Shown here in pieces: positions 7,313 to 26,250 of a stretch of DNA of 64,000 bases. The position numbers and the translations under genes were made by a program. Each line of letters opens with the position of its first letter. Positions within the stretch are counted from its first letter, which is position 1. Under the pieces are notes generated by a model, which was given only the letters and a program-made list of their open reading frames with translations, was not told the DNA's origin and did no database searches. Source of the stretch: Methanofastidiosum sp. (lineage in GTDB: Archaea > Methanobacteriota_B > Thermococci > Methanofastidiosales > Methanofastidiosaceae); the NCBI GenBank assembly GCA_013178285.1, contig JABLXD010000012.1, positions 5,174 to 69,173 on the forward strand, read 5' to 3'.

Positions 7313-8140
7313 ATGGAAAATAATAAGATAATATTAATAGTATTACCATTTTTTTTAATTATCGGCACTTTATTTATTGTTCAGGTTAATAATTATAACC
7401 AGAACTTAGAAAAAGACTTAGTAAAAATAAATAGTTTTTATAGTATTAATAACGATTCATATTCAGAAGATTTAAGTTTCGATTATGACTATTATCAAAA
7501 GGATCCATATAATAAAAATATCTTTAATTCTAGTATAATCAGTTATAAATCTCTTCGCGTGAATTTTGGTAAAACTGAAACATCACTTATTCTTGAATTT
7601 CATACATTGAGAAAAGTAAAGGACAAATGGCTTTATTTATATATAAACAATTACTACTCATATTATTTTTTTGGAATAGATGAAATAAAATCTATAAAAA
7701 TAAAAAATAAAGAAGGGAAAGAAAAAACATATGACAAAGAAGATTTAGTAGATAAATGGTTTACAAATGGTAATCTAAAATTAGATCATGAAATGTTTAA
7801 TTCAGAATTCGACGAATATACAATAGAAATACTTATGGAACCTATGCCAATAAAAACAAATGAAATAATAATTCAGAATTGTATACGGGATATAAATTAT
7901 TATTTTGGGTGGAATGCTGATGAGTTTGTTTATATTAGTTCAAATGTTGGGAGAACGAACAACAATGTTATTTATTATTCACCAACAAATATTTCACCAA
8001 TGAATACAAAAATAGAAACTACCATAATTAGAGACAAAACAAAAAATGATTGGAACCTATATATCCAATTTCTAGCAAATGCTCTTGCATTTTCAGTTGT
8101 AATTGTTTCTGCAGGGAAGTATCTACTAGGAAAAAAATAA
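7313..8140 (+). CDS. Hypothetical membrane-anchored protein (N-terminal TM, C-terminal TM plus basic tail)
   Basis: 275-aa ORF with N-terminal IILIVLPFFLIIGTLFIV, an N/Y/K-rich body and a C-terminal FLANALAFSVVIVSAGKYLLGKK. No recognisable catalytic motif. Confidence 0.45.
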   Translation: MENNKIILIVLPFFLIIGTLFIVQVNNYNQNLEKDLVKINSFYSINNDSYSEDLSFDYDYYQKDPYNKNIFNSSIISYKSLRVNFGKTETSLILEFHTLRKVKDKWLYLYINNYYSYYFFGIDEIKSIKIKNKEGKEKTYDKEDLVDKWFTNGNLKLDHEMFNSEFDEYTIEILMEPMPIKTNEIIIQNCIRDINYYFGWNADEFVYISSNVGRTNNNVIYYSPTNISPMNTKIETTIIRDKTKNDWNLYIQFLANALAFSVVIVSAGKYLLGKK

Positions 8141-8184
8141 TAATGGTTAAGATTTTAGTTTAATTAGTAAAAATATAATTATCC

Positions 8185-8294
8185 AAAAATAAAGTCAATA
8201 AGGTTAAATAAAGGAGTGTAAAAAGATTAAAAGACTCTCCTTTTATTTACATCTTTTAGGCCTAGGGGCACGTTTATTTATTGACTTTATTTTT
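8185..8294. repeat. 110-bp structured element: perfect 17-bp inverted repeats (AAAAATAAAGTCAATAA / TTATTGACTTTATTTTT) enclosing an inner hairpin and a GGCCTAGG palindrome
   Basis: Left arm 8185–8201 and right arm 8278–8294 are exact reverse complements. Inner stem aaaggagtgt...actctcctttt at 8211–8244. ggcctagg at 8259–8266. Confidence 0.5.
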
Positions 8295-8462
8295 TTAATG
8301 GCCTATAAAAAGACCTAAAAATCATCTTTTGACGCCTTTAATGAATTCTTTATCTGTATGCGCTTGGCTCCTTAACAAGTGCGAGGGACTACAGTATTAC
8401 TCGAAAGAGTAGAGAGAAGAATTATTAAACTATTTAAATAAATAAACAAAATAATTATAAAA

Positions 8463-8801
8463 ATGATAGAAGGAATTATATTGGGAATAGGACTTCATGC
8501 AAAAGTAAAAGTAAAACAAAAAAGAATAAATAAAAAAAGACCTATTTTAGAATTGGAAGGAGGGCATGATCTTTTTAAAAAAGATAACAAGTGGAACTAT
8601 CTGACTAGAATTATTGATAGAGAAAATGATCATTATTTAGAAGTTATAAAAGATATAAAAACAGAGAAAATTATTAAAAAAGAAGATTGTAAACTTTCAG
8701 ATCATTACGGCCATGGCAGTGCCAAATGGAAAAAGAACAGATATAAGATACTTAGATTTTTTAAAACCATAATCTCATTTTTTAAAAGATTATTTGTCTG
8801 A
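8463..8801 (+). CDS. Hypothetical protein (112 aa), highly basic
   Basis: ORF only. K/R-rich, no motif recognised. Weak coding call in an AT-rich region. Confidence 0.3.
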   Translation: MIEGIILGIGLHAKVKVKQKRINKKRPILELEGGHDLFKKDNKWNYLTRIIDRENDHYLEVIKDIKTEKIIKKEDCKLSDHYGHGSAKWKKNRYKILRFFKTIISFFKRLFV

Positions 8802-9031
8802 TTCTTTAAGATTAGATAACGAAAAACAATATTTTTTTTATAATTCACTTTTTGAACTTCGTCAACAGCATGAATATAGACCCTAGTAGAGAAAATTAAT
8901 TACTAACTCCTCTAAATCCCCATTATTTTCCCTAACTACCCCGCCCTAAACAGCCACAAAATCATTTACGTATAATAATCCTATTTTAGTTAGAAGAAGG
9001 TATTTAAATAAAACGCCAATATATAAGGACG

Positions 9032-9289
9032 ATGACTACCAATGTAAGGCGTGTCTGGGATAAAATGGAATACGAAACTCCTAAGGCCTACGATGCATTT
9101 CTCTCCTATTGTGAGTTGGGCCCAAATAGAAGCCTATCAAAGTTGTCAAAGAATCTCAAGAAAAGCAAGTCGCTTCTCTCACGCTGGTCCGCTAGATATG
9201 ACTGGTTCTATAGGGCTTCCACATACGACAAGTACCTTCATGAAATGGTTATGAGAGAAGTTGCAATTATTTGGGCTATGGTCATTTGA
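9032..9289 (+). CDS. Hypothetical protein (85 aa)
   Basis: ORF MTTNVRRVWDKMEYETPKAYDAFLSYCELGPNRSLSKLSKNL... The composition is less AT-skewed than an intergenic shadow ORF would be. The overlapping frame 9051..9254 is rejected. Confidence 0.3.
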   Translation: MTTNVRRVWDKMEYETPKAYDAFLSYCELGPNRSLSKLSKNLKKSKSLLSRWSARYDWFYRASTYDKYLHEMVMREVAIIWAMVI

Positions 9290-9516
9290 GTATCTAATAT
9301 GCTCAATCTATTAACAAAAAAATAGTATGGCGCATATCTAAACAAAATTATAAAAGAAATAATCGTGAATAATCCAATAAATAAAGGAGTCTTATAATTA
9401 ATTTCCATTATTAGAAATCTCAAGTTGGAATATATAAATGTATATATAATGCGAGTTTATTTTGGTGAATTTCTCAATGAAAAAATATTTCCCTATTTGA
9501 AGAAAAATAAGTATAA

Positions 9517-10044
9517 TTATTTTTTAAAGAAATTTATTTTATCTCCTACTAATGAAACAATAAAAATAGAACTTAAGGTACCAATAAAAGCCGAAAATAA
9601 AATTCCTAAAAATAAGTTAATTCGATCTCTATTCTTATTATATAGAGATATGTCAGTAGTTTGAAAATTTTCATAATCAGCTATTTTGGCCCCACCAATT
9701 AAAGATTCTATATCATTTGATTTATTTCTCAATTCAAAATCAGAGTCCCATAAAATACTATAAGGATAATGATACGAAAATGCCCTCAAAAGATAATCTT
9801 TTTCTAAATCAAAATTCATATTTCTCTTAAATTTTATCTTAATATAAAGGTAAGAATAATTATTGGGATTAAATATATCTTGATTTAATTTTATATGTAT
9901 TGATGAATTATCAAATACAATTTTATCATTATTTATTTTGGAGGAATTATATATATTCTCATAAGCTATACTGAATGTGCGTTTTTCATAATTAGGATAA
10001 TAACGGTACACGTCAATGCTATCAATGTCTTTTGTATTTATCAA
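9517..10044 (-). CDS. Hypothetical protein with C-terminal TM anchor (175 aa)
   Basis: ORF only. C-terminal LFLGILFSAFIGTLSSIFIVSLVG. Confidence 0.35.
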   Translation of the reverse strand: MINTKDIDSIDVYRYYPNYEKRTFSIAYENIYNSSKINNDKIVFDNSSIHIKLNQDIFNPNNYSYLYIKIKFKRNMNFDLEKDYLLRAFSYHYPYSILWDSDFELRNKSNDIESLIGGAKIADYENFQTTDISLYNKNRDRINLFLGILFSAFIGTLSSIFIVSLVGDKINFFKK

Positions 10045-14179: not shown

Positions 14180-17100
14180 TTATATTGAATCCTTCTTCTT
14201 TCCCTTTATTACTTCTTTTGGATCAGGCACGGAATTAGAGTTATTAGAGGAGAATCGACGAATATTTTCTTCCTTTTTGCCTTTAATAACTTCCTTTATA
14301 TCTGGTACAGGAACATATGAATCATTTGAACTAGAAGGCCTTTTCTCTAATAATTCTTTAATTGAAGAGGGTATTTCGGGGGAGGTGTTGTTGTATCTAA
14401 AGTTGTTTGTCCAAGAGCTTCCCTTTTTACTTGATCCATTGTCGCCTTCTTTAAAGGGATTCTCTGGAGCACCGTTATTCTTCTTTTGTTTGAAGTCTTT
14501 GTATGCCCTTTCTACCGATGGAGGAAGATCTAGGTCGATATTTTTGGGAACCACTCTTCCTTTTATTTCTTTCAATTGCTCTTCTTCAAACTCAACATGT
14601 TTTTTATTTTCAATTTCGTTAATTTCATTTAATATTTTAGTCTGAAATTCGTCAAGTTCCTTTCTATCCATTAACTCTATATGACTAACATCCTCTGATT
14701 CAATTCTCTGCTCTGCTATTGCTATATTCTCTTTTCTTTTTTCAATTTCTTCTAAAGTTTTAGTAATTTCAGATCTTAATGATTCTATTTCAAAAGAATC
14801 AAGAGAGGCCAGCTTATCTTGATCCTGTAAAGTTGATTTTAATTCTTCTATATCTTTTCTAATCTCTTCCGGAGGGCCAAATTCTATCCTTGGGGGCCTT
14901 ATATTAATATCCTCTTCTGCTATTGGCATGACCTGTGGAGAATATTTCATTTCGGCCTTTGCATTGTTAATTTTAATTCCCTCTTTTTGTGAAGGTAGTT
15001 CTTTATTAATGACCCCTGCAGATTCCAATTCTTTTCTTAAAGATTCATTTTTTAGACCTTTGGATTCTTGAGATTCATATAAATGGGATAGGGAAAAAGG
15101 TTTCTTTTCTTGAGGTATGCCTTCTTTCTTCTTTGAAAATAATGAAAATTTACTCTTTTGTTTCTGTTTAATTGCAGGAGGCGCAACTTTTTTACCGAGT
15201 AATTCATGACCAATCTGATCTTTAGTTAGTATATTATCTTCACGTGTTGCAAACTCTTTAAACTTATTTTCAATTTCAAGACTTGGAGAGGGAGGTGGTT
15301 GCATTCTTTCTTTGGAGGGTATTTTTTCCTTCTTAGAAAACAGGTCAAAACTTTTCTTCTCTTTTTTAATGCCTCCATCTAGTGATTTAGATTGAGTTCC
15401 GAAGGGAGCTATTGGAGCCTGTTGTTCAGATTTAACAGATTTTTCTTTTTGTCTTGAGAAAACTCCAAATCCTTTTTCGGATTTAGTTGTTTTTTTCTTA
15501 ACTATCTCTGGGCCGGGAGGAGGTGTTCCACCTTTTTGGATCATAGATTTAGTAGATGGCCCTTTCGATCTGGTTGATCTATAGACCGAGTATCCTACTA
15601 CGGACAAAAGTAGTGCAATAATTGCAATTATAATATATGGCGCATATGGGGAAGACTTAATATCCTCTATTGTTTGAGTTACGGCTTGAGGGACACTTGG
15701 TACGCTAGATTGAGGAGCTACTTTTGCTTTAACACTGATTGCTGTTCTTTCAATATCAAAAGATTTTAACTCCTCAAAGGCGTTCATCCAGTAGAACTTT
15801 GAGTCTTCTAAGATAAAGGAGCCAGACTTTGTAGCTTTTATTTGTATTTCTTTTGATACCTCAGCCCCACCTTTAATTTCTTCAATTATAATTTCTTTAT
15901 CTCCAGAAATTATTTCAAATTCTGAAGGAAGTGCTTCAGCTATTTTAACTTCGTATATATCGTCCTTGCCCCAGTTTTTGATATTATATATAATTTTCAA
16001 TACTTCTCCTTCTTCAATTTCATTAGTAGAGATAGTTCTAGAAATTGAAGGTCCCCAAACTGTAACTAATGTAGGGGATAGAGATTTAGTTCCTTTGACG
16101 CCCCACTCGTCTTCATAAGTAGAAGCTGTTTGGCCAATCTGGTATTCTCCGCCTTGAGAAGGAACTAATGTGTATCTTAAAGTAACTCGCTCTTCTGGTT
16201 TCAGTTGGCCTCCCCAATAATTAATACCTGTTGTCAATTGAAGATTTGAAGGTATCCTGTCCTCGATTCTTACATTTTTAGCATCGCCATCGCCAGTATT
16301 AGTTATTATTGTTGTAACAGGGATGATATGCCCAATTCTAACAATATCCGATTCATATTCAGATTCTTGTCTAATCAACTGTATATTTGGAGTCCTTCCA
16401 CCAACAGTTATATTTGTAGATGCTTCAGATTTAGCCTTCTTCGCAGCAATATCTTCAAATTCTGATGAAGTATTGATAGTGAATATCTTATCCTTATTCT
16501 CTTGAAGAACTCTGACTGTGAATTTAGTTGTTTTGGAATCTCCTTGTTTTAAACTATCAACAAACCCTCCAAGTTCTCCGTCTACAAGCTCTATATCCCC
16601 AGAAATAGAGTTGATATAGCTTATTTTCTTTGCAAGACCATCTCCTGTGTTAGTTAAAGTTAGGACAACATCGACATACTTATAATCTGCAAAAGAATAA
16701 TCTTCATTGAAATATTGGATATTGGAAATTGTAATCTTAGGTTCTCCGTTTACTCTTACTGATGTACCTGATGCTATATGTTCAAAACTATGCCCTTCTA
16801 GATCATAATATAATAATTTAGTATCCCCAATTTTATATTCGCCTGGATACGACGCTGTTATGATATAATTATACATTTTTTCCTGTTCTGGTTTTAGTTC
16901 AGGAATTGTATATTCTATTCTTTTTATTTTAGGATTGTCAATCAATCTAAATCCTTCAGGGACATAATCAAGAACCTGCACATCTCTTGCAATTTTATTT
17001 CCAGTATTTCTTACAACTAGCACGACTATAACAGAATCTCCCCTAGATATGGTAACTCTATCCAATTTTTTAAGAATTTCAAGTCTAGGAAATTCCTTGC

Positions 17101-19123
17101 TTACGGTAACAGGCTCAATTTTAGAAGTTGTTTTGTATTTTTTCCCAGCTTCATCTTCAAAAAGTAGTTGAGTTTTAAATTCAAATTCTCCCATTTCTAA
17201 AGCTTTAACTTTGTAGATTAATGTAAATGTTTCATTTTTTGCCATTTTTGGAATATTTGTTGTTGCACTGCCATCAATTAACTCGAATCCGTCAGGAATA
17301 TAATCAATTAGATTTACTTTTGTGGCAGTTATATCTCCTATATTTTTAATTCTAACTTCAACGTCAGTAGTTTCTCCTACAAAAAGTTTTTCTTTTACAA
17401 TATTTCTTGTAATTTGAAATTCTGGTTGTTTTGGTACAATTGTAACTAATGTTTTATCACTTTTTGAATAATCTTGAATTACTTCCTGTTCTTTTTCATT
17501 AAAGTATCCCATTTGGTAGGATAAATCAATTTGGATTGGTGATACCTTTAGATAGTCAGTTTTTGGAGATTTAAATTTAAATACAATCAATCTTGTTTCA
17601 TCAGGTTCCATAGATTTTATTTCAAGGCATGCTTCATTGTCTGAACCACAATAACAATTGTTACCTGTTAAAAAAGTGAAATCTTTAGCTGTTATATGTA
17701 TTTTTACATTTTTTGCAGGTATATCCCCAGTATTTTGAATTTCAGTTACATACCAAAATGTTGTATCTGATTGAGGCTTTTCAATTTCATTTTCAGTTTC
17801 AAATTCAAAATCTTCAGGCCTCATTATTGAATGTATTATTGGAGTCCAAATTACTGTACCTCCACCCATCTCATAAATTGTTAGTTGTCTAATATTTTTA
17901 CAGGTACTATCTTTTCCGATAGTAACAATATCTCCCTGGCGCAATTCACCAAGTTGAACAAATGATCCATTTGTCTCTTCAAAGTTATAGACATATTGGA
18001 TATTTCCATTTATCATGGAAACATTGAAATTGTAAGTTTTTTCATCGAACTCGACAGAGCCGGAGCTTGCATTAATATCTACATCTCCTAAAAGAACAGT
18101 TTTAATCCCTTCCTTACTTCCTCTCAAGAAAGTTCTGTTGGTATCATCTATTTCTCCCCTATATAGTGTTGTTGAATTAATTGATAGTTCGGGTTCTTTT
18201 CTTTTAGTTACTGTTATGTTGAGTTTATATCTACCAAAGTAATTGGCATTTTCGTGATCATTAATTTCATTTACTTTAATTTTAAGAATTTCATCTATGT
18301 ATAATGTATCTCCCGGAACTACCACCTGCTGGATTACCAAGGTACCCTTTCGATAAACTTCTAGAATACCTCTTTCTGGAGGCATTACAGGATGCCTTCT
18401 TTGGAGATCTTTAAGCAATATTGTATAATCTCCTACAACTGTGAGATCTCCAATCTCTATCCATCCCATGAATACGGCATCGGGATCATAATAGGGCCCC
18501 GGTAAAAGGACAAAGTCTTGAGTAATAGTTCCAGAAGGATAAGGCACGTTGACACTTATTTTTTTAGGAAGCCATCCTACTCCAGAAGCTTCAATATCGT
18601 AGAGCCCCCCAAGACCGGAAAGTGAGTAATTACCATCAGTAGACGTTATAGAAGTTGCTAAAACATTTTCCGTTCCAGGATAGTAAGCATTTACAGTTGC
18701 ACCTTCAATTGGTGTTATGCCATCGGGCTGGAAAACATGTCCCACGACACTGCCATTTGTATCTTGGAGCGTTAAATTATAATCGGGCCCACAAGATGTG
18801 ATGCATGTATCTGCCAATGTAGAATTCGAAGTATAGCCCGGAGCATATGCCCTTATTATATACTTACCATGTTCTAATGGATATATATAAAATGTACCAT
18901 TTACATCTGTTGTTGTCATCCCTTTTATGGTGGGGCAAGCATTATTATCGTTAGCATAATGGGCATCAACGATTGCACCGCTGATTCCTTGTGGAGTTGC
19001 ATTAGTATCTGTTATTCGACCAGAAATTACGCCTTGCGCCAAAACTGGAGTTGCAACAACGCTGACCATGAATATCGATAATAAAAATATATTTAGTAAG
19101 TATAAATAATTGGATTTTTGCAT
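14180..19123 (-). CDS. Giant surface protein (1647 aa): signal peptide, carboxypeptidase-regulatory-like domains, multiple DUF11/CARDB-type repeats, one TM helix, ~500-aa K/E/S/P-rich coiled-coil cytoplasmic tail
   Basis: N-terminal MQKSNYLYLLNIFLLSIFMVSVVATPVLAQG. GVISGRITDT...GAIVDAHY and GSVVGHVFQPDG...GATVNAYY (CarboxypepD_reg-like). Repeated [IV]xNTG[DN]xxAKNV...[IV]P.GF units (TITNTGDGDAKNVRIEDRIPSNL, VRNTGNKIARDVQVLDYVPEGF, IKNIGDITATKVNLIDYIPDGF). TM YIIIAIIALLLSVVGYSVY. Tail with PPPGP and a heptad-like EIESLRSEITKTLEEIEKRKENIAIAEQRIE. Confidence 0.85.
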   Translation of the reverse strand: MQKSNYLYLLNIFLLSIFMVSVVATPVLAQGVISGRITDTNATPQGISGAIVDAHYANDNNACPTIKGMTTTDVNGTFYIYPLEHGKYIIRAYAPGYTSNSTLADTCITSCGPDYNLTLQDTNGSVVGHVFQPDGITPIEGATVNAYYPGTENVLATSITSTDGNYSLSGLGGLYDIEASGVGWLPKKISVNVPYPSGTITQDFVLLPGPYYDPDAVFMGWIEIGDLTVVGDYTILLKDLQRRHPVMPPERGILEVYRKGTLVIQQVVVPGDTLYIDEILKIKVNEINDHENANYFGRYKLNITVTKRKEPELSINSTTLYRGEIDDTNRTFLRGSKEGIKTVLLGDVDINASSGSVEFDEKTYNFNVSMINGNIQYVYNFEETNGSFVQLGELRQGDIVTIGKDSTCKNIRQLTIYEMGGGTVIWTPIIHSIMRPEDFEFETENEIEKPQSDTTFWYVTEIQNTGDIPAKNVKIHITAKDFTFLTGNNCYCGSDNEACLEIKSMEPDETRLIVFKFKSPKTDYLKVSPIQIDLSYQMGYFNEKEQEVIQDYSKSDKTLVTIVPKQPEFQITRNIVKEKLFVGETTDVEVRIKNIGDITATKVNLIDYIPDGFELIDGSATTNIPKMAKNETFTLIYKVKALEMGEFEFKTQLLFEDEAGKKYKTTSKIEPVTVSKEFPRLEILKKLDRVTISRGDSVIVVLVVRNTGNKIARDVQVLDYVPEGFRLIDNPKIKRIEYTIPELKPEQEKMYNYIITASYPGEYKIGDTKLLYYDLEGHSFEHIASGTSVRVNGEPKITISNIQYFNEDYSFADYKYVDVVLTLTNTGDGLAKKISYINSISGDIELVDGELGGFVDSLKQGDSKTTKFTVRVLQENKDKIFTINTSSEFEDIAAKKAKSEASTNITVGGRTPNIQLIRQESEYESDIVRIGHIIPVTTIITNTGDGDAKNVRIEDRIPSNLQLTTGINYWGGQLKPEERVTLRYTLVPSQGGEYQIGQTASTYEDEWGVKGTKSLSPTLVTVWGPSISRTISTNEIEEGEVLKIIYNIKNWGKDDIYEVKIAEALPSEFEIISGDKEIIIEEIKGGAEVSKEIQIKATKSGSFILEDSKFYWMNAFEELKSFDIERTAISVKAKVAPQSSVPSVPQAVTQTIEDIKSSPYAPYIIIAIIALLLSVVGYSVYRSTRSKGPSTKSMIQKGGTPPPGPEIVKKKTTKSEKGFGVFSRQKEKSVKSEQQAPIAPFGTQSKSLDGGIKKEKKSFDLFSKKEKIPSKERMQPPPSPSLEIENKFKEFATREDNILTKDQIGHELLGKKVAPPAIKQKQKSKFSLFSKKKEGIPQEKKPFSLSHLYESQESKGLKNESLRKELESAGVINKELPSQKEGIKINNAKAEMKYSPQVMPIAEEDINIRPPRIEFGPPEEIRKDIEELKSTLQDQDKLASLDSFEIESLRSEITKTLEEIEKRKENIAIAEQRIESEDVSHIELMDRKELDEFQTKILNEINEIENKKHVEFEEEQLKEIKGRVVPKNIDLDLPPSVERAYKDFKQKKNNGAPENPFKEGDNGSSKKGSSWTNNFRYNNTSPEIPSSIKELLEKRPSSSNDSYVPVPDIKEVIKGKKEENIRRFSSNNSNSVPDPKEVIKGKKKDSI

Positions 19124-19284
19124 TGTTCCACCTAGTTGTGAATATCCACTACCAATTATGATTTAATAACTATATAAAGCTTTTGGTATTATTGATTAAC
19201 AATAGATATTTTTAATTTTTAGAATTAGTAAATAACTCTTGTAATAATAAAATAGAAAAATATATTTTTGAGAAGAATATTGTA

Positions 19285-19503
19285 TTATTTAGAAAGTTTT
19301 TTAATTCTGGCAAGACGTGCCCTTAATATCTCAAGTTCTTCTCTTGACAATCTCCCACCACGTAATCTTTCAAGTTCTTCTTTTTGCAGGTACACTCTAA
19401 CTCCTAAGATAACATTAATTATTATACTAATTATGGCTATAATAAAAATTATTATCCAGCTATTAATCATTACATCTACTAGTGCCATAATATCATCTCC
19501 CAA
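19285..19503 (-). CDS. Small membrane protein with C-terminal coiled-coil/Arg-Leu-rich tail (72 aa), translationally coupled to minD
   Basis: MGDDIMALVDVMINSWIIIFIIAIISIIINVILGVRVYLQKEELERLRGGRLSREELEILRARLARIKKLSK. Start overlaps the minD stop by 11 nt. The competing plus-strand ORF 19268..19507 is a low-complexity antisense. Confidence 0.35.
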   Translation of the reverse strand: MGDDIMALVDVMINSWIIIFIIAIISIIINVILGVRVYLQKEELERLRGGRLSREELEILRARLARIKKLSK

Positions 19504-20263
19504 ATAGTCCTCCCATTAATTTATTCATGGATTTGGTAGAAGAATCAAATTCTGACTTCTTTCCTGCAATTTTTTTAGCAATATCTCTAATAGCTAGTGA
19601 AGCAGGAGATTTTGGATCCAATAACACGAAAGGTTTGCCTAGTGTTGTTGATTTCTTTACTATTTGATCCTCTGGGATGTTACCAATTATCCTGAGTTCA
19701 AGTATTGCTTCTATTTCCGGACCTGAAACTTCTGTTGGATCTCCTCTAACTCTATTTACAATAACTCCAAGAATCCTTGTGCCCAATTTTTCAGCTACCA
19801 ATTTTATCTTTAATGCATCGGACAAGGAAGTAATTTCAGGATTTACTATTAAAAGCATGTTTTGTGAAGCTGCTATAGAAGTAACTGCATCTACTTCAAG
19901 TCCAGGAGGCCCATCAATTATCAACAAATCAACTTTTTCAACAAATACTTTGAATATTTGATTAATTTTATCGGGATCTGATTTTTTTAGTCTTCTTAAT
20001 GATAAACCAGCTGGAACAACTTTAACTCCTCCAGGGCCATCATATACTATATCTTCAGGTCTTGCTTTATCTTCCAATACATCCTGTATTGTTTTGGGCA
20101 ATCCCTCCATTCCAAATATTAGCTCAAGATTGGCCATAGTTATATCTGCATCAAAAATTAGAACGTTAAGCCCAACCTCAGAAAGAGCAATTCCTAAATT
20201 GGCGGCTATTGTTGTTTTACCTACTCCGCCCTTTCCTGAGGATATGACTAGTGATTCTCCCAA
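19493..20263 (-). CDS. minD: MinD/ParA-family P-loop ATPase (archaeal MinD-like)
   Basis: Deviant Walker A GKGGVGKTT, a Walker B-like hhhhD segment and a C-terminal amphipathic tail. 256 aa. Confidence 0.85.
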   Translation of the reverse strand: MGESLVISSGKGGVGKTTIAANLGIALSEVGLNVLIFDADITMANLELIFGMEGLPKTIQDVLEDKARPEDIVYDGPGGVKVVPAGLSLRRLKKSDPDKINQIFKVFVEKVDLLIIDGPPGLEVDAVTSIAASQNMLLIVNPEITSLSDALKIKLVAEKLGTRILGVIVNRVRGDPTEVSGPEIEAILELRIIGNIPEDQIVKKSTTLGKPFVLLDPKSPASLAIRDIAKKIAGKKSEFDSSTKSMNKLMGGLFGR

Positions 20264-20386
20264 TAAAACTCCTCCATTGTTTATAAAGTAAAAAGTAAAT
20301 TAATATATAAAATTATCCCTGATTATTACGAAATCTACAAAAAAGATAAGGAAAAACTTAAAACAGACTTTAATATTGAAAAATCA

Positions 20387-20884
20387 ATGATAAAAAATAA
20401 TATAATTCAAAAATATGGCGAAGAAAATTATATCAAGTTATTATTTTTTATCAAAGGGGCGTTAATATCTATATTTCTTTATGTTATAAGTGATTATACC
20501 CCCATTAGAATATTTACTGCGCAGGCTGTTAAAGAAGGGATAACTTTTTTTGATATACAAAAGCCACTAATTATATCTGGTAAATTTGTGGCCGTTGGAA
20601 ATTATGAGATATCTAAACGATGTATTGGATTGGCTTCAGGGGCTATATTTACTGCTTTATTTATTTTATCTTCTTTTAAACTAGTCAAAAAGATCATATA
20701 CTTATCACTATTCCTTATAAGTCTATTATTCCTTAATATATTAAGATTGATAATAACAATATATCTTTTCGAACAAGGTTACACCTGGCTTATTGCCCAT
20801 GACATATTAGCTTATGTTCTTGGGATTGGTTTTTCATTTCTTGTTCTAATAAGAATTAATCCTTACATACCATTATTTAGATAA
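20387..20884 (+). CDS. Minimal archaeosortase/exosortase-family protein (short form, ArtE-like) - tentative
   Basis: 165-aa polytopic membrane protein with Cys79 (SKRCIGLASG), Arg121 in an N-x-x-R context (LNILRLII) and Arg159 (LIRINP). The Cys-Arg-Arg spacing (about 41 and 38 aa) mirrors the catalytic C/R/R spacing of archaeosortase A. Confidence 0.45.
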   Translation: MIKNNIIQKYGEENYIKLLFFIKGALISIFLYVISDYTPIRIFTAQAVKEGITFFDIQKPLIISGKFVAVGNYEISKRCIGLASGAIFTALFILSSFKLVKKIIYLSLFLISLLFLNILRLIITIYLFEQGYTWLIAHDILAYVLGIGFSFLVLIRINPYIPLFR

Positions 20885-21904
20885 AGTATTTTTATAAACC
20901 TCCAAATTTGCCTTTGCACATTTTTCCCATGAAAATAGATTTGATTTGCCAATGACTTTATTCGAGATATTTTCCCTAAATTCTGGAATTTTTATTATTT
21001 TCTCTACTAACTCAATTAGTTGACTTTTATCTGGAACTGCCAGATCTAAATCGCCCAATAAATAATTAGACCCAGGGCTTTCTAAAGCTACGACAGGGAT
21101 GCCACACGCCATGGATTCCAAAATAGAAAGTCCAAATCCTTCTGTTTTTGATGTAGATACAACGCAAAGAAGTTTTTTCAAATATTTCTCAGTTTCAATT
21201 ATTTCTCCCAAGAAAAAAATATTTTGTCCTTCTGAAATTTTCTCAAGTTCCGTTCTTAGATATCCATCTCCAATAATATAAGCTGGTTCAAGAATTCCTT
21301 TTCTTCTAAGTTCTTTTACTAATTCAATAAATTCTCTAGGATTTTTTTCATTGACTAATGCTCCAATGAACCCAATACCTTTTTTTTCTGAGTTTTCTGG
21401 TAAAAATTTAGAATGCTCAACTCCGTTGGGTATGGAAAAAATTTTTCCTTTTGATAAAGTTTCAATTTTTTCTGCTAGATCTGGAGAAACGGCTATGATT
21501 GTAGGATAATTGGATAATATAAACTTGACTAACTTTCCCATTATTCCTTTTTCTAAGTATACATTAATATCGCTTCCATGAACAGTTAGAATCCTTTTCT
21601 TTCTTGTAAATATTGATAAAAAAAATCCCAATAATCCAGGAGTTGTTGCAAAATGAGAATGTATGACTTCAATTTTATTCTTTCTAATAACACTAACTCC
21701 CTTGAAAATCCCAAAGAGAACAAAAAAAAAGCCTCTAAATTTTTTAGGTAATTTAGATGAGTAGACTTTTTCTTCTAAAGAATTTGAATAAGTTAGCACA
21801 TAAACATCTTGGTCAAGTTTCTCTAATTCTTTTTTAAGTTGATATATATGGGTTGAAATGCCACCAATTTTGGGAGGATATTCTCCAATCATCAAGATAT
21901 TCAT
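20873..21904 (-). CDS. Glycosyltransferase family 4 (GT-B, 'group 1')
   Basis: 343 aa. N-terminal GGISTH, C-terminal EGFGLSILESMACGIPVVA (E-x7-E-type GT4 motif). Confidence 0.8.
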   Translation of the reverse strand: MNILMIGEYPPKIGGISTHIYQLKKELEKLDQDVYVLTYSNSLEEKVYSSKLPKKFRGFFFVLFGIFKGVSVIRKNKIEVIHSHFATTPGLLGFFLSIFTRKKRILTVHGSDINVYLEKGIMGKLVKFILSNYPTIIAVSPDLAEKIETLSKGKIFSIPNGVEHSKFLPENSEKKGIGFIGALVNEKNPREFIELVKELRRKGILEPAYIIGDGYLRTELEKISEGQNIFFLGEIIETEKYLKKLLCVVSTSKTEGFGLSILESMACGIPVVALESPGSNYLLGDLDLAVPDKSQLIELVEKIIKIPEFRENISNKVIGKSNLFSWEKCAKANLEVYKNTLSK

Positions 21905-25362: not shown

Positions 25363-26250
25363 TTAAGAGTTAATCAATCTTAATACTGCATCCCTTGTCT
25401 TTTCCCTATCTGCCCCTGCAACAATAATTACATCGCGTCCAGGGTATAGGCCATCTTGTATAAATTCAATATCTCCTTGAGAGCTATACCAATCAATTTT
25501 TGATTTTCCTCGTTGCACAAGTCCTGCAACAATATTATTTGCAACTGGTCCCCCTACAAGTACAATATTATTATTTTTGGCAACATTTTCTAATAATGTT
25601 TCATCATTTGTTATCAGTTTCTCAGGTTCCCATATATTTACTTTGACTTGTTGGAATGCGCCGGGTTGTTCCGTTCTGAATATAGTATTAAATCTTAGAT
25701 TTCCTCCAGAGTTGTACAATCCAAGTGAGTTGTCATTATTGTCCAATATTTCGATAGAGAAATCTGGAGAAATTGTAACATTTCTATTAAATTCTGGATT
25801 AATAATGTTTAATGGATTTTGATTTTGGGCAATATATATCTTTAGATTATTTGTATCTGTTGTAATGAATCTAAGATTTGTTACTAGAATAGACTGGCCA
25901 TATGTGAAGGTGCCAGTATTTCCTGCATTGTCTGCCCATGTTAGGTTCATAGTAGAGGGATCTAAGGTGATTAATTGATCATTTGAAGCTTCCATTATTT
26001 TTGAACCCGATATTGTAACATAAACAAAATTCTCATAATAAGCTTCACTTTGAATTTTTGTTATAATTAAATTACCAGAGATTAGGTCCATGGAAGCAGC
26101 GTTTTTACCAACTACAATTATGGAGTGAGGTTGCCCGTTACTCGTATCGACAAAAAAGGATCTTGGGATATCTGTAGATAAAACTGGAAAAATTAAAAAG
26201 AGTTGAAAAGTCAATATTAATGAAAAAATAAAAGCCATTTTAGTTCTCAT
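25363..26250 (-). CDS. Secreted hypothetical protein (295 aa) with N-terminal signal peptide
   Basis: MRTKMAFIFSLILTFQLFLIFPVLS signal. N/T/S-rich beta-type body. C-terminal GGPVANNIVAGLVQRG. Confidence 0.55.
   Translation of the reverse strand: MRTKMAFIFSLILTFQLFLIFPVLSTDIPRSFFVDTSNGQPHSIIVVGKNAASMDLISGNLIITKIQSEAYYENFVYVTISGSKIMEASNDQLITLDPSTMNLTWADNAGNTGTFTYGQSILVTNLRFITTDTNNLKIYIAQNQNPLNIINPEFNRNVTISPDFSIEILDNNDNSLGLYNSGGNLRFNTIFRTEQPGAFQQVKVNIWEPEKLITNDETLLENVAKNNNIVLVGGPVANNIVAGLVQRGKSKIDWYSSQGDIEFIQDGLYPGRDVIIVAGADREKTRDAVLRLINS

Follow-up and report, generated by a model that had tools for sequence, protein, structure and literature searches.

We analyzed a 64,000-nucleotide (nt) stretch of a Methanofastidiosum sp. 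contig (JABLXD010000012.1), hereafter the window, in which three consecutive open reading frames (ORFs) on the minus strand code for an archaeal MinD, a membrane mini-protein and a giant surface protein. A first-pass annotation, made from the letters alone, had listed these ORFs, which are indeed present where it placed them, and had proposed that the cytoplasmic tail of the giant protein could be engaged by the MinD-type ATPase. Its interpretation is partly supported. What appears to be new within the known ParA/MinD positioning systems is the MinD-mini pair, which is robust and apparently undescribed, the giant protein being a lineage-specific third member. The source of the window, Candidatus Methanofastidiosum, is a WSA2-group methanogen, and identical or near-identical copies of the locus were found in metagenome-assembled genomes (MAGs) and metagenome assemblies.

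The assignment of the first ORF to MinD stands. Its product scored 298.6 bits against TIGR01969 (minD_arch), for which the cut-off is 201.75, and 144.4 bits against the bacterial equivalog TIGR01968 (minD_bact), which is below the cut-off of 212.9. A deviant Walker A motif with the signature lysine (xKGGxGK[ST]) was read from the translation as SSGKGGVGKTT at residues 8-18, and the nearest solved structure is Archaeoglobus fulgidus MinD-1 (PDB 1HYQ; E 5.5e-78). The protein ends in KSMNKLMGGLFGR, a membrane-targeting-like sequence that is invariant in the genus; similar basic-hydrophobic C-termini were seen in distant orthologs, and all the MinDs encoded next to mini-genes end in this way. The hydrophobic moment of this end is moderate (0.33). 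The window MinD carries a predicted C-terminal membrane-targeting-like amphipathic end. In a scan of the genome collection, MinD was 89-96% identical in 14 loci labeled Methanofastidiosum or close relatives. Beyond the genus this MinD-seeded scan returned only unrelated bacterial MinDs (∼30% identity) matched by pattern chance, and the next MinDs outside the genus are only 46-57% identical to that of the window. In one Methanofastidiosum population minD is split, with residues 1-60 and 55-256 encoded ∼8 kb apart (L044:828-9628; also L042:1-1226). Within the insert are a CLC chloride-channel gene and two UPF0236-type transposase genes of identical sequence; the downstream mini- and giant-protein genes are intact. 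This population may be a natural minD knockout.

The second ORF had been described as a 72-aa transmembrane (TM), Arg/Leu-rich peptide whose gene overlaps minD by 11 nt. One TM helix and an Arg/Leu-rich C-terminus are indeed present; the length and the overlap, in contrast, hold only if a TTG is used as the start. The more likely start is the ATG at 19488, which has GGGAG upstream, is taken by most public gene calls, lies 4 nt past the minD TGA and gives a protein of 67 aa. In this mini-protein a TM helix in which a Ser and an Asn are invariant (IS..LN) leads through a GG loop to a basic amphipathic C-terminal helix (REELEILRARLARIKKLS). In an AlphaFold2 (AF2) model built on the family alignment, a helix spanning residues 3-43 (the TM segment and its extension) is followed by a loop at the GG motif (44-48) and a second helix (49-66), with a mean predicted local distance difference test (pLDDT) score of 80. 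Since the N-terminus is acidic and the cytoplasmic part has a net charge of +6, an N-out/C-in topology is predicted. The C-terminal 30 residues are nearly invariant among 15 sequences. When the gene was compared with those of eight species, synonymous codon changes far exceeded nonsynonymous ones (e.g., 23 versus 10 overall, and 15 versus 2 in the C-terminal 33 codons), and the mini-ORF is therefore a real gene under purifying selection.

The family to which the mini-protein belongs was defined with an alignment (A2) that has the window protein as its first row. In it S21, N25, E38 and E51 are invariant, and T48, R58, L59 and K63 nearly so. The family pattern, to which the window protein conforms, is a protein of 56-80 aa with an N-terminal TM helix carrying [IFV]S..LN, followed by L..E[LV] ... 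[ST]..E[LV]..[LI]..RL.[RK].K. A word-index search with the mini-protein alone returned genus members only, and the distant members surfaced only once a profile was seeded with the neighbors of distant MinDs. The profile search then found members in Methanofastidiosum, in Methanococcales, in Archaeoglobi and in a hydrothermal-sediment euryarchaeon that NCBI labels 'Methanomicrobia archaeon' or 'Thermoplasmatales archaeon' (hereafter lineage 2). All members with a name carry either the annotation 'hypothetical' or a spurious label. When 1.84 billion cluster representatives were searched exhaustively, 86 matched at E ≤ 1e-3, nearly all of 42-81 aa. The window mini-protein had no match at E ≤ 0.01 in Pfam or NCBIfam. 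For the family (29 of 45 members found), MinE was not among the 25 Pfam families listed, and none of these reached its cut-off; the sub-threshold similarities were to DUF4446 (20 of the 29 members), FlaC_arch (15) and DUF948 (10), all three of them TM-plus-coiled-coil families. DUF4446 genes often adjoin bacterial parAB, which we take as a lead only. No description of the mini-proteins was found in the literature searched. They form an archaeal family without a Pfam or NCBIfam model, and one that is apparently undescribed.

Overlap, abutment or a gap of at most 4 nt was counted as direct adjacency, and the 4 nt between the minD TGA and the mini-gene ATG place the window in this class. In four of the four MinD-side look-ups made outside the genus, an ORF of the mini type (62-80 aa, N-terminal TM helix) directly follows minD. 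In Archaeoglobus neptunius a 62-aa TM protein is encoded 4 nt after minD, in lineage 2 the gene for a 67-aa TM protein abuts minD, and in Methanotorris igneus minD is overlapped by 4 nt by the gene for a 62-aa TM protein, after which a 222-aa protein is encoded. These three small proteins align with that of the window and have in common with it the TM Ser and Asn and the cytoplasmic pattern. In Pyrococcus (L061:5001-6022) minD is overlapped at its stop by 4 nt by the gene for an 80-aa protein with an N-terminal TM helix; here the TM signature is kept (LISVLLN), the cytoplasmic part is acidic and divergent, and the profile score is weak. Starting from the mini-genes, minD was found directly upstream in six of seven look-ups: lineage 2, L038, Methanofervidicoccus, a Methanococcales MAG, Methanothermococcus okinawensis and L059. 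In Methanofervidicoccus abyssi (L039:7596-8186) three tandem mini-genes (60, 66 and 61 aa, two of them nearly identical) follow minD. The pair, in which MinD is of the A. fulgidus MinD-1 type, therefore occurs in Archaeoglobus, in Methanococcales, in the hydrothermal euryarchaeal lineage, in two unclassified archaea and, with the divergent 80-aa form, in Pyrococcus. Judged from gene order, minD and the mini-gene form a conserved two-gene module of Euryarchaeota that is predicted to be translationally coupled. The first-pass annotation had treated the mini-protein as an accessory; this evidence makes it the putative conserved core partner.

The third ORF codes for a predicted type-I surface protein. 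A Sec-like signal, two CarboxypepD_reg domains, DUF11/CARDB/TRAP_beta/BatD domains and one TM helix were found, in agreement with the earlier description. That description also gave at least eight DUF11/CARDB repeats, of which only six DUF11-type domains are evident by their N-x-G signature (residues ∼445-1135). The DUF11 cut-offs were clearly passed, with 98.8 bits for PF01345 (cut-off 24.6) and 73.4 bits for TIGR01451 (cut-off 24). A module of ∼240 aa (residues ∼205-445) has no domain assignment. Against the curated S-layer family NF052345 the protein scored only 33 bits (cut-off 1400), and no sequence relative was found among solved structures. In an 11-species alignment of the 161-nt spacer between the mini- and giant-protein genes, the first ∼60 nt are unconserved and the last ∼108 nt are almost invariant. 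A semi-palindrome in the upstream block of this conserved part, ATTGTTAATCAAT, may be a regulator site.

The position of the TM helix leaves a tail of 466 aa, not the 500 aa first estimated. The tail is K/E/S/P-rich, as noted earlier (K 15.7%, E 12.9%), and the coiled-coil stretch also claimed for it fits the confident helices at residues 1419-1477 and 1487-1522 of a single-sequence AF2 model. About half of the modeled segment has a pLDDT <50, and most of what lies outside the helices appears disordered. Within the genus the tail is the fastest-evolving of the parts compared (55-72% identity versus 80-90% for the ectodomain), and its length is kept at 453-469 aa in 13 Methanofastidiosum species. 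Of the three K-x-F-x-L-F-S-K-K-K copies in its membrane-proximal region, the third, together with the PFSLSHLY that follows, is nearly invariant in the genus. Conserved blocks in the helical core are EIESLRSEISKTLEEIE, KELDEFQ and EIESLRSEI.K.L, and the orthologs of the 13 species have further invariant islands: LLGK.VAPP.IK, PENPF, SWT..F...TS..IP.SI.ELL.K and two copies of P-x-KE[VIL]IKGKK. Considered as membrane-binding helices, the tail motifs have hydrophobic moments of 0.05-0.37. Near its end the window protein carries PKEVIKGKKK, 13 residues from the C-terminus. The tail of the lineage-2 giant protein ends in PKEVLKGKKKKKEE, which contains PKEVLKGKKK, identical at 9 of 10 positions and 14 residues from the C-terminus. 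A match of this quality was reached by none of 300 shuffles, and PKEV[IL]KGKKK was found nowhere else in the window or in the loci checked. The coordinates of the features are collected in Table 1.

Table 1. Features of the minD-mini-giant locus and its divergent neighbor in the window (BRE, transcription factor B recognition element; aa and residue numbers refer to the encoded protein).
Feature	Position	Strand	Basis or content
minD, archaeal MinD-type ParA/MinD ATPase, 256 aa, TTG start, GGAGG Shine-Dalgarno	19493..20263	-	TIGR01969; Pfam CbiA/ParA/AAA_31
Mini-protein gene, 67 aa from ATG 19488 (72 aa if TTG 19503 is used)	19285..19488	-	Sequence, family alignment, AF2, purifying selection
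Promoter/leader of the giant-protein gene	19124..19231	-	BRE/TATA AAAGCTTTATATA ∼50 nt before the ATG; Shine-Dalgarno AGGTGG; upstream block with semi-palindrome ATTGTTAATCAAT
Giant type-I surface protein gene, 1647 aa	14180..19123	-	Signal peptide, 2 CarboxypepD_reg, ∼240-aa module, six DUF11/CARDB-type domains, TM, 466-aa tail
Giant-protein TM helix (residues 1163-1181) after a conserved SPYAP motif	15581..15637	-	TM prediction, genus alignment
Membrane-proximal tail region, three K-x-F-x-L-F-S-K-K-K copies, residues ∼1219, ∼1259, ∼1326	15119..15484	-	Genus alignment
Helical coiled-coil-like tail core, residues 1419-1522	14558..14869	-	AF2 block-mean pLDDT mostly 81-95, dips 65-69
Two C-terminal Lys-rich motif copies P-x-KEVIKGKK, residues 1610-1617, 1636-1643	14195..14296	-	Alignment
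minD/archaeosortase-like divergent intergenic region	20264..20386	.	TATA-like TTTTATATAT ∼45 nt before the minD start; sequence read directly
Archaeosortase/exosortase-family gene, 165 aa, divergent from minD	20387..20884	+	TIGR04178 exo_archaeo 30.7 bits (cut-off 23)

Whether the three genes belong together had been left by the first-pass annotation to their adjacency in relatives. Fourteen Methanofastidiosum loci have the same order (OTCase, PRC, GGGPS, GT4, the archaeosortase-like gene, MinD, mini-protein, giant protein, PCNA, methyltransferase, ABC); the whole stretch being syntenic, adjacency within the genus carries no linkage information. Outside it the recurrence is uneven: the MinD-mini pair is found in several lineages and the full triad in one distant lineage, the third gene varying or being absent elsewhere. 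The distant triad is that of lineage 2, where a 1192-aa protein with CarboxypepD_reg and DUF11 domains is encoded by a gene that overlaps the mini-gene by 4 nt. This protein is a collinear ortholog of the window giant (29% identity over 1060 aligned positions, E 2e-124, window residues 118-1135), with a signal peptide and a single TM helix as in the window and a tail of only 116-120 aa. Between the window and lineage 2 identities are 53% for MinD, 32% for PCNA and 29% for the giant ectodomain; the PCNA value comes from one lineage-2 contig and compares with 70-84% within the genus. The flanks of the triad are otherwise unshared: in lineage 2 it is preceded by two Roadblock/LC7 genes and followed by Pelota. 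When metagenomes were scanned with the giant-ortholog alignment, 17 loci were returned. Sixteen hold orthologs, all from Methanofastidiosum or lineage 2, and wherever such a locus extends sufficiently upstream, MinD and the mini-protein are encoded there; the remaining one (L056) matches DUF11 only weakly and in part.

The Roadblock/LC7-like genes of lineage 2 (113 and 116 aa) are on the same strand, 12 nt upstream of minD (L033:6300-6988; also L035, L036 and L052-L055). This arrangement suggests a five-gene operon of two Roadblock genes, minD, the mini-gene and the giant-protein gene. No Roadblock/LC7 homolog was found in the window.

Beyond the two triad lineages the third genes, where present, are also envelope-related by their predicted features. 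In Methanococcales the third gene codes for a protein of 222-251 aa in which a signal peptide, a domain rich in N-glycosylation sequons and an N/S/T-rich linker are followed by a TM helix that ends the chain. In L059, an uncultured archaeon (GCA_902386085.1; 419-5932), the order is MinD, mini-protein, a PilB3-type T2SSE ATPase and a PilC-like T2SSF platform protein. By gene order, this is a direct operon link of the MinD-mini pair to a type IV pilus machine.

The window genes were compared with known systems. They resemble Escherichia coli minCDE in having a small, translationally coupled gene directly after that of a deviant-Walker-A ATPase whose C-terminal end is predicted to be amphipathic; the basic helix of the small gene product could address the MinD dimer. 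They differ in that the N-terminus of the mini-protein holds a true TM helix, in that this protein has neither a MinE fold nor a Pfam MinE match, and in that the downstream genes code for envelope proteins. No MinC was seen among the genes annotated around the window locus. With no MinE match and a MinD that scores below the bacterial cut-off, this is not a bacterial Min system. In Haloferax volcanii MinD4 positions archaella and chemosensory arrays (10.1101/2020.04.03.021790), and MinD2 is co-transcribed with a small protein, HVO_0596, for which an AlphaFold 3 prediction of binding to MinD2 is reported (PMC11588486). These archaeal MinDs are tied to envelope machines, not to the divisome, and minD2 likewise lies beside a small-protein gene; however, deletion of HVO_0596 has no phenotype and no giant surface protein is involved. 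HVO_0596 was considered as a haloarchaeal mini-protein and ruled out by size, since its gene of 584 nt (∼194 aa) compares with 56-80 aa in the family. The Dip system, composed of a GTPase, a DUF2073 protein and a Zn-ribbon protein, is unrelated.

Two further archaeal cases are relevant. Archaeoglobus MinDs of the MinD-1 type are followed by a mini-gene, but A. fulgidus MinD-1 itself was solved as an isolated protein, with no assigned partner or function found in the literature searched. In Methanococcus maripaludis the operon of MMJJ_11080 (MinD/ParA) and MMJJ_11090 and the ArtE archaeosortase MMJJ_17200 are required for natural transformation (PMC10133366). By description this combines a MinD/ParA protein, an uncharacterized operon partner and a small archaeosortase, and in the window a small archaeosortase-family (ArtE-like) gene lies by minD; on the other hand, the insertion coordinates give MMJJ_11090 a span of at least 1.5 kb, and a mini-gene is not among the genes reported. 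Transformation is a surface-dependent process. With its array of DUF11-type β-sandwiches and its CarboxypepD_reg domains, the giant ectodomain resembles the DUF11/CARDB surface proteins of archaea, from which it is set apart by its conserved tail and its fixed position after minD and the mini-gene.

Partners of ParA/MinD ATPases often act through a short basic peptide. With a basic amphipathic helix that is predicted to face the cytoplasm and a permanent place in the membrane, the mini-protein is an obvious candidate for the partner of MinD. ATPases of this class form ATP-dependent dimers on a surface, where a partner tethers cargo or stimulates hydrolysis, and they generally need an ATPase-stimulating partner (10.1101/2020.04.03.021790). 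We lean, by a little, towards the view that MinD and the mini-protein together make up a conserved module in the membrane by which envelope components are placed, with the giant protein as its lineage-specific cargo or landmark. In such a module the C-terminal amphipathic end of MinD would hold its ATP-bound dimers to the cytoplasmic side of the membrane. Their integral-membrane partner would be the mini-protein, N-out/C-in, with its basic C-terminal helix in contact with MinD, and it might serve as a tether or as a MinE/ParB-like activator of the ATPase. The invariant polar Ser/Asn pair of its TM helix could be an intramembrane contact for single-pass envelope proteins, which would explain the coupling of the tail-less single-pass proteins of Methanococcales. 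The components placed or marked would differ by lineage, the giant DUF11 protein being that of Methanofastidiosum and of one distant lineage, and the association with a pilus ATPase in L059 would fit the placement of envelope structures. The giant tail would offer a second candidate interface for MinD, with its KxFxLFSKKK repeats, helical core and terminal PKEV[IL]KGKKK. A bolder proposal, which we put forward tentatively and hold to be rather doubtful, is that the mini-protein is the missing archaeal MinD partner, a single-pass TM adaptor or activator that passes the pattern of the cytoplasmic ATPase across the membrane to single-pass surface proteins and pilus machines, the giant tail being addressed by MinD; Euryarchaeota would then place envelope structures by an inside-out system unlike Min, Par and Dip.

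Parallels to such an arrangement exist in bacteria. In Bacillus subtilis MinJ is a membrane-spanning adaptor between MinD and a landmark (MinD-MinJ-DivIVA), alike in role to what is proposed for the mini-protein, and FlhG/FleN are MinD-type ATPases that set the place and number of envelope machines. MinJ, however, is a PDZ protein with several membrane passes and has no relation to the mini-protein, and the FlhG partners (FlhF, FliM/N) are cytoplasmic. Archaeal MinD homologs are widespread, and to our knowledge no MinE-like partner of theirs has been reported. In the Haloferax study, the partners of its MinDs are described as still unidentified (PMC11588486). A coupled membrane mini-protein in lineages of the Archaeoglobi, the Methanococci and the Thermococci class is a concrete candidate for such a partner, and it occurs in tractable species. 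If the link is real, it would show how an archaeon ties a cytoplasmic positioning ATPase to the exterior of the envelope, and it would give a name and a function to a family now annotated only as 'hypothetical'.

Several observations weigh against placing the giant protein within such a module. The conserved BRE/TATA in the spacer implies that its gene is probably a transcription unit of its own in Methanofastidiosum. The triad is known in two lineages only, which shared ancestry or a single transfer could explain, and in Archaeoglobus, L038 and Pyrococcus the pair has no same-strand third gene. The third protein of Methanococcales lacks a cytoplasmic tail, and the tail is therefore not a general interface; the split of minD with the mini- and giant-protein genes intact means that MinD may be dispensable for the giant protein. 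The pairing itself has an exception in an orphan mini-gene (66 aa, L060:2967-4107), which has no MinD neighbor and directly follows a toxin-antitoxin-like pair (RHH/UPF0175 and DUF3368). It is possible, although we do not expect it, that only MinD and the mini-protein are a functional pair, acting on pili, the division site or cell shape, and that the giant is an independent adhesin or S-layer-like protein that owes its position to inherited gene order. Its strongly conserved Shine-Dalgarno, alongside the promoter, and the occurrence of the pair without it in Methanococcales and L059 as well would agree with this, as would the pilus genes of L059 and the link of the MinD/FleN group arCOG00589, often found in operons with membrane proteins, to type IV pili (PMC4858521). 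Against it, the triad is kept between two lineages that have no other flanking gene in common, with overlapping codons in lineage 2, and MinD and the mini-protein are present at all those among the 16 ortholog loci that have sufficient sequence upstream. The conserved tail motifs, one of them common to both lineages, argue for a cytoplasmic binding partner. That the tail should be a disordered, low-complexity spacer only, the outcome that the first-pass annotation had named as fatal to its proposal, is most improbable: its composition, the low pLDDT of about half of the modeled segment and its fast evolution would suit a spacer, but a length held across 13 species, many invariant blocks and repeated motifs, confident helices within residues 1419-1522 and a terminal motif common to a distant lineage contradict it.

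Two other roles were weighed against the proposed placement of envelope components by MinD and the mini-protein. The mini-protein could be a membrane-anchored analog of MinE, forming with MinD an oscillator or gradient of the Min kind by which the FtsZ division plane is set, the downstream surface genes being incidental. In line with this are the gene order, which resembles that of bacterial minDE in having a small, translationally coupled gene after minD, the end of MinD that resembles a membrane-targeting sequence and the Arg-rich helix of the mini-protein, and Dip is reported absent from Methanococci and Thermococci, classes where the pair occurs (PMC13228585). The pair is also found, however, in Archaeoglobi, which have Dip (PMC13228585), and an activator that is fully embedded in the membrane cannot leave it for the cytosol in the way MinE can. 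The similarity of the mini-proteins to DUF4446, FlaC_arch and DUF948, sub-threshold as it is, in place of any Pfam match to MinE, and the lack of a MinC among the genes annotated around the locus also speak against it, and the Haloferax MinDs examined to date are reported to have no part in positioning the divisome (PMC11588486). We consider a MinE analog unlikely. It is still less probable, to the point of being very unlikely, that the neighboring small archaeosortase acts on the giant protein, whose TM helix and tail would be a cleaved sorting signal, the tail having no role with MinD. The exosortase/archaeosortase-family gene is divergent beside minD and syntenic in the genus, an ArtA-like gene lies 3 kb from the Archaeoglobus pair, and the transformation of M. 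maripaludis needs both ArtE and a MinD/ParA operon (PMC10133366). Yet the giant protein matches no PGF-, PEF- or VPXXXP-CTERM model, 466 conserved residues follow its TM helix where a sorting signal has a short basic stub, and no archaeosortase gene was found within 7-8 kb of the lineage-2 triad.

The archaeosortase-family gene is best regarded as a neighbor only, and a link to the MinD-mini module is uncertain. Its product scored below the cut-offs of the heimdallarchaeosortase and ArtE models, and the gene shares 12 nt at its 3′ end with the convergent GT4 glycosyltransferase gene (20873-21904). A separate S-layer-like gene (295 aa, 25363-26250, minus strand) that matches the outer domain PF05124 (S_layer_C) with E 3e-28 lies ∼5 kb from minD. 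On the other side of the locus, the window at 7313-10044 was compared with L001 and L002, in which the calls beyond the ABC gene are Nitro_FeMo-Co, a Mrp/ParA-like gene and mcrB/mcrD. The window ORFs at ∼7.3-9.5 kb look unlike these, and include a 275-aa plus-strand ORF without a Pfam match. This difference may be a strain-level rearrangement.

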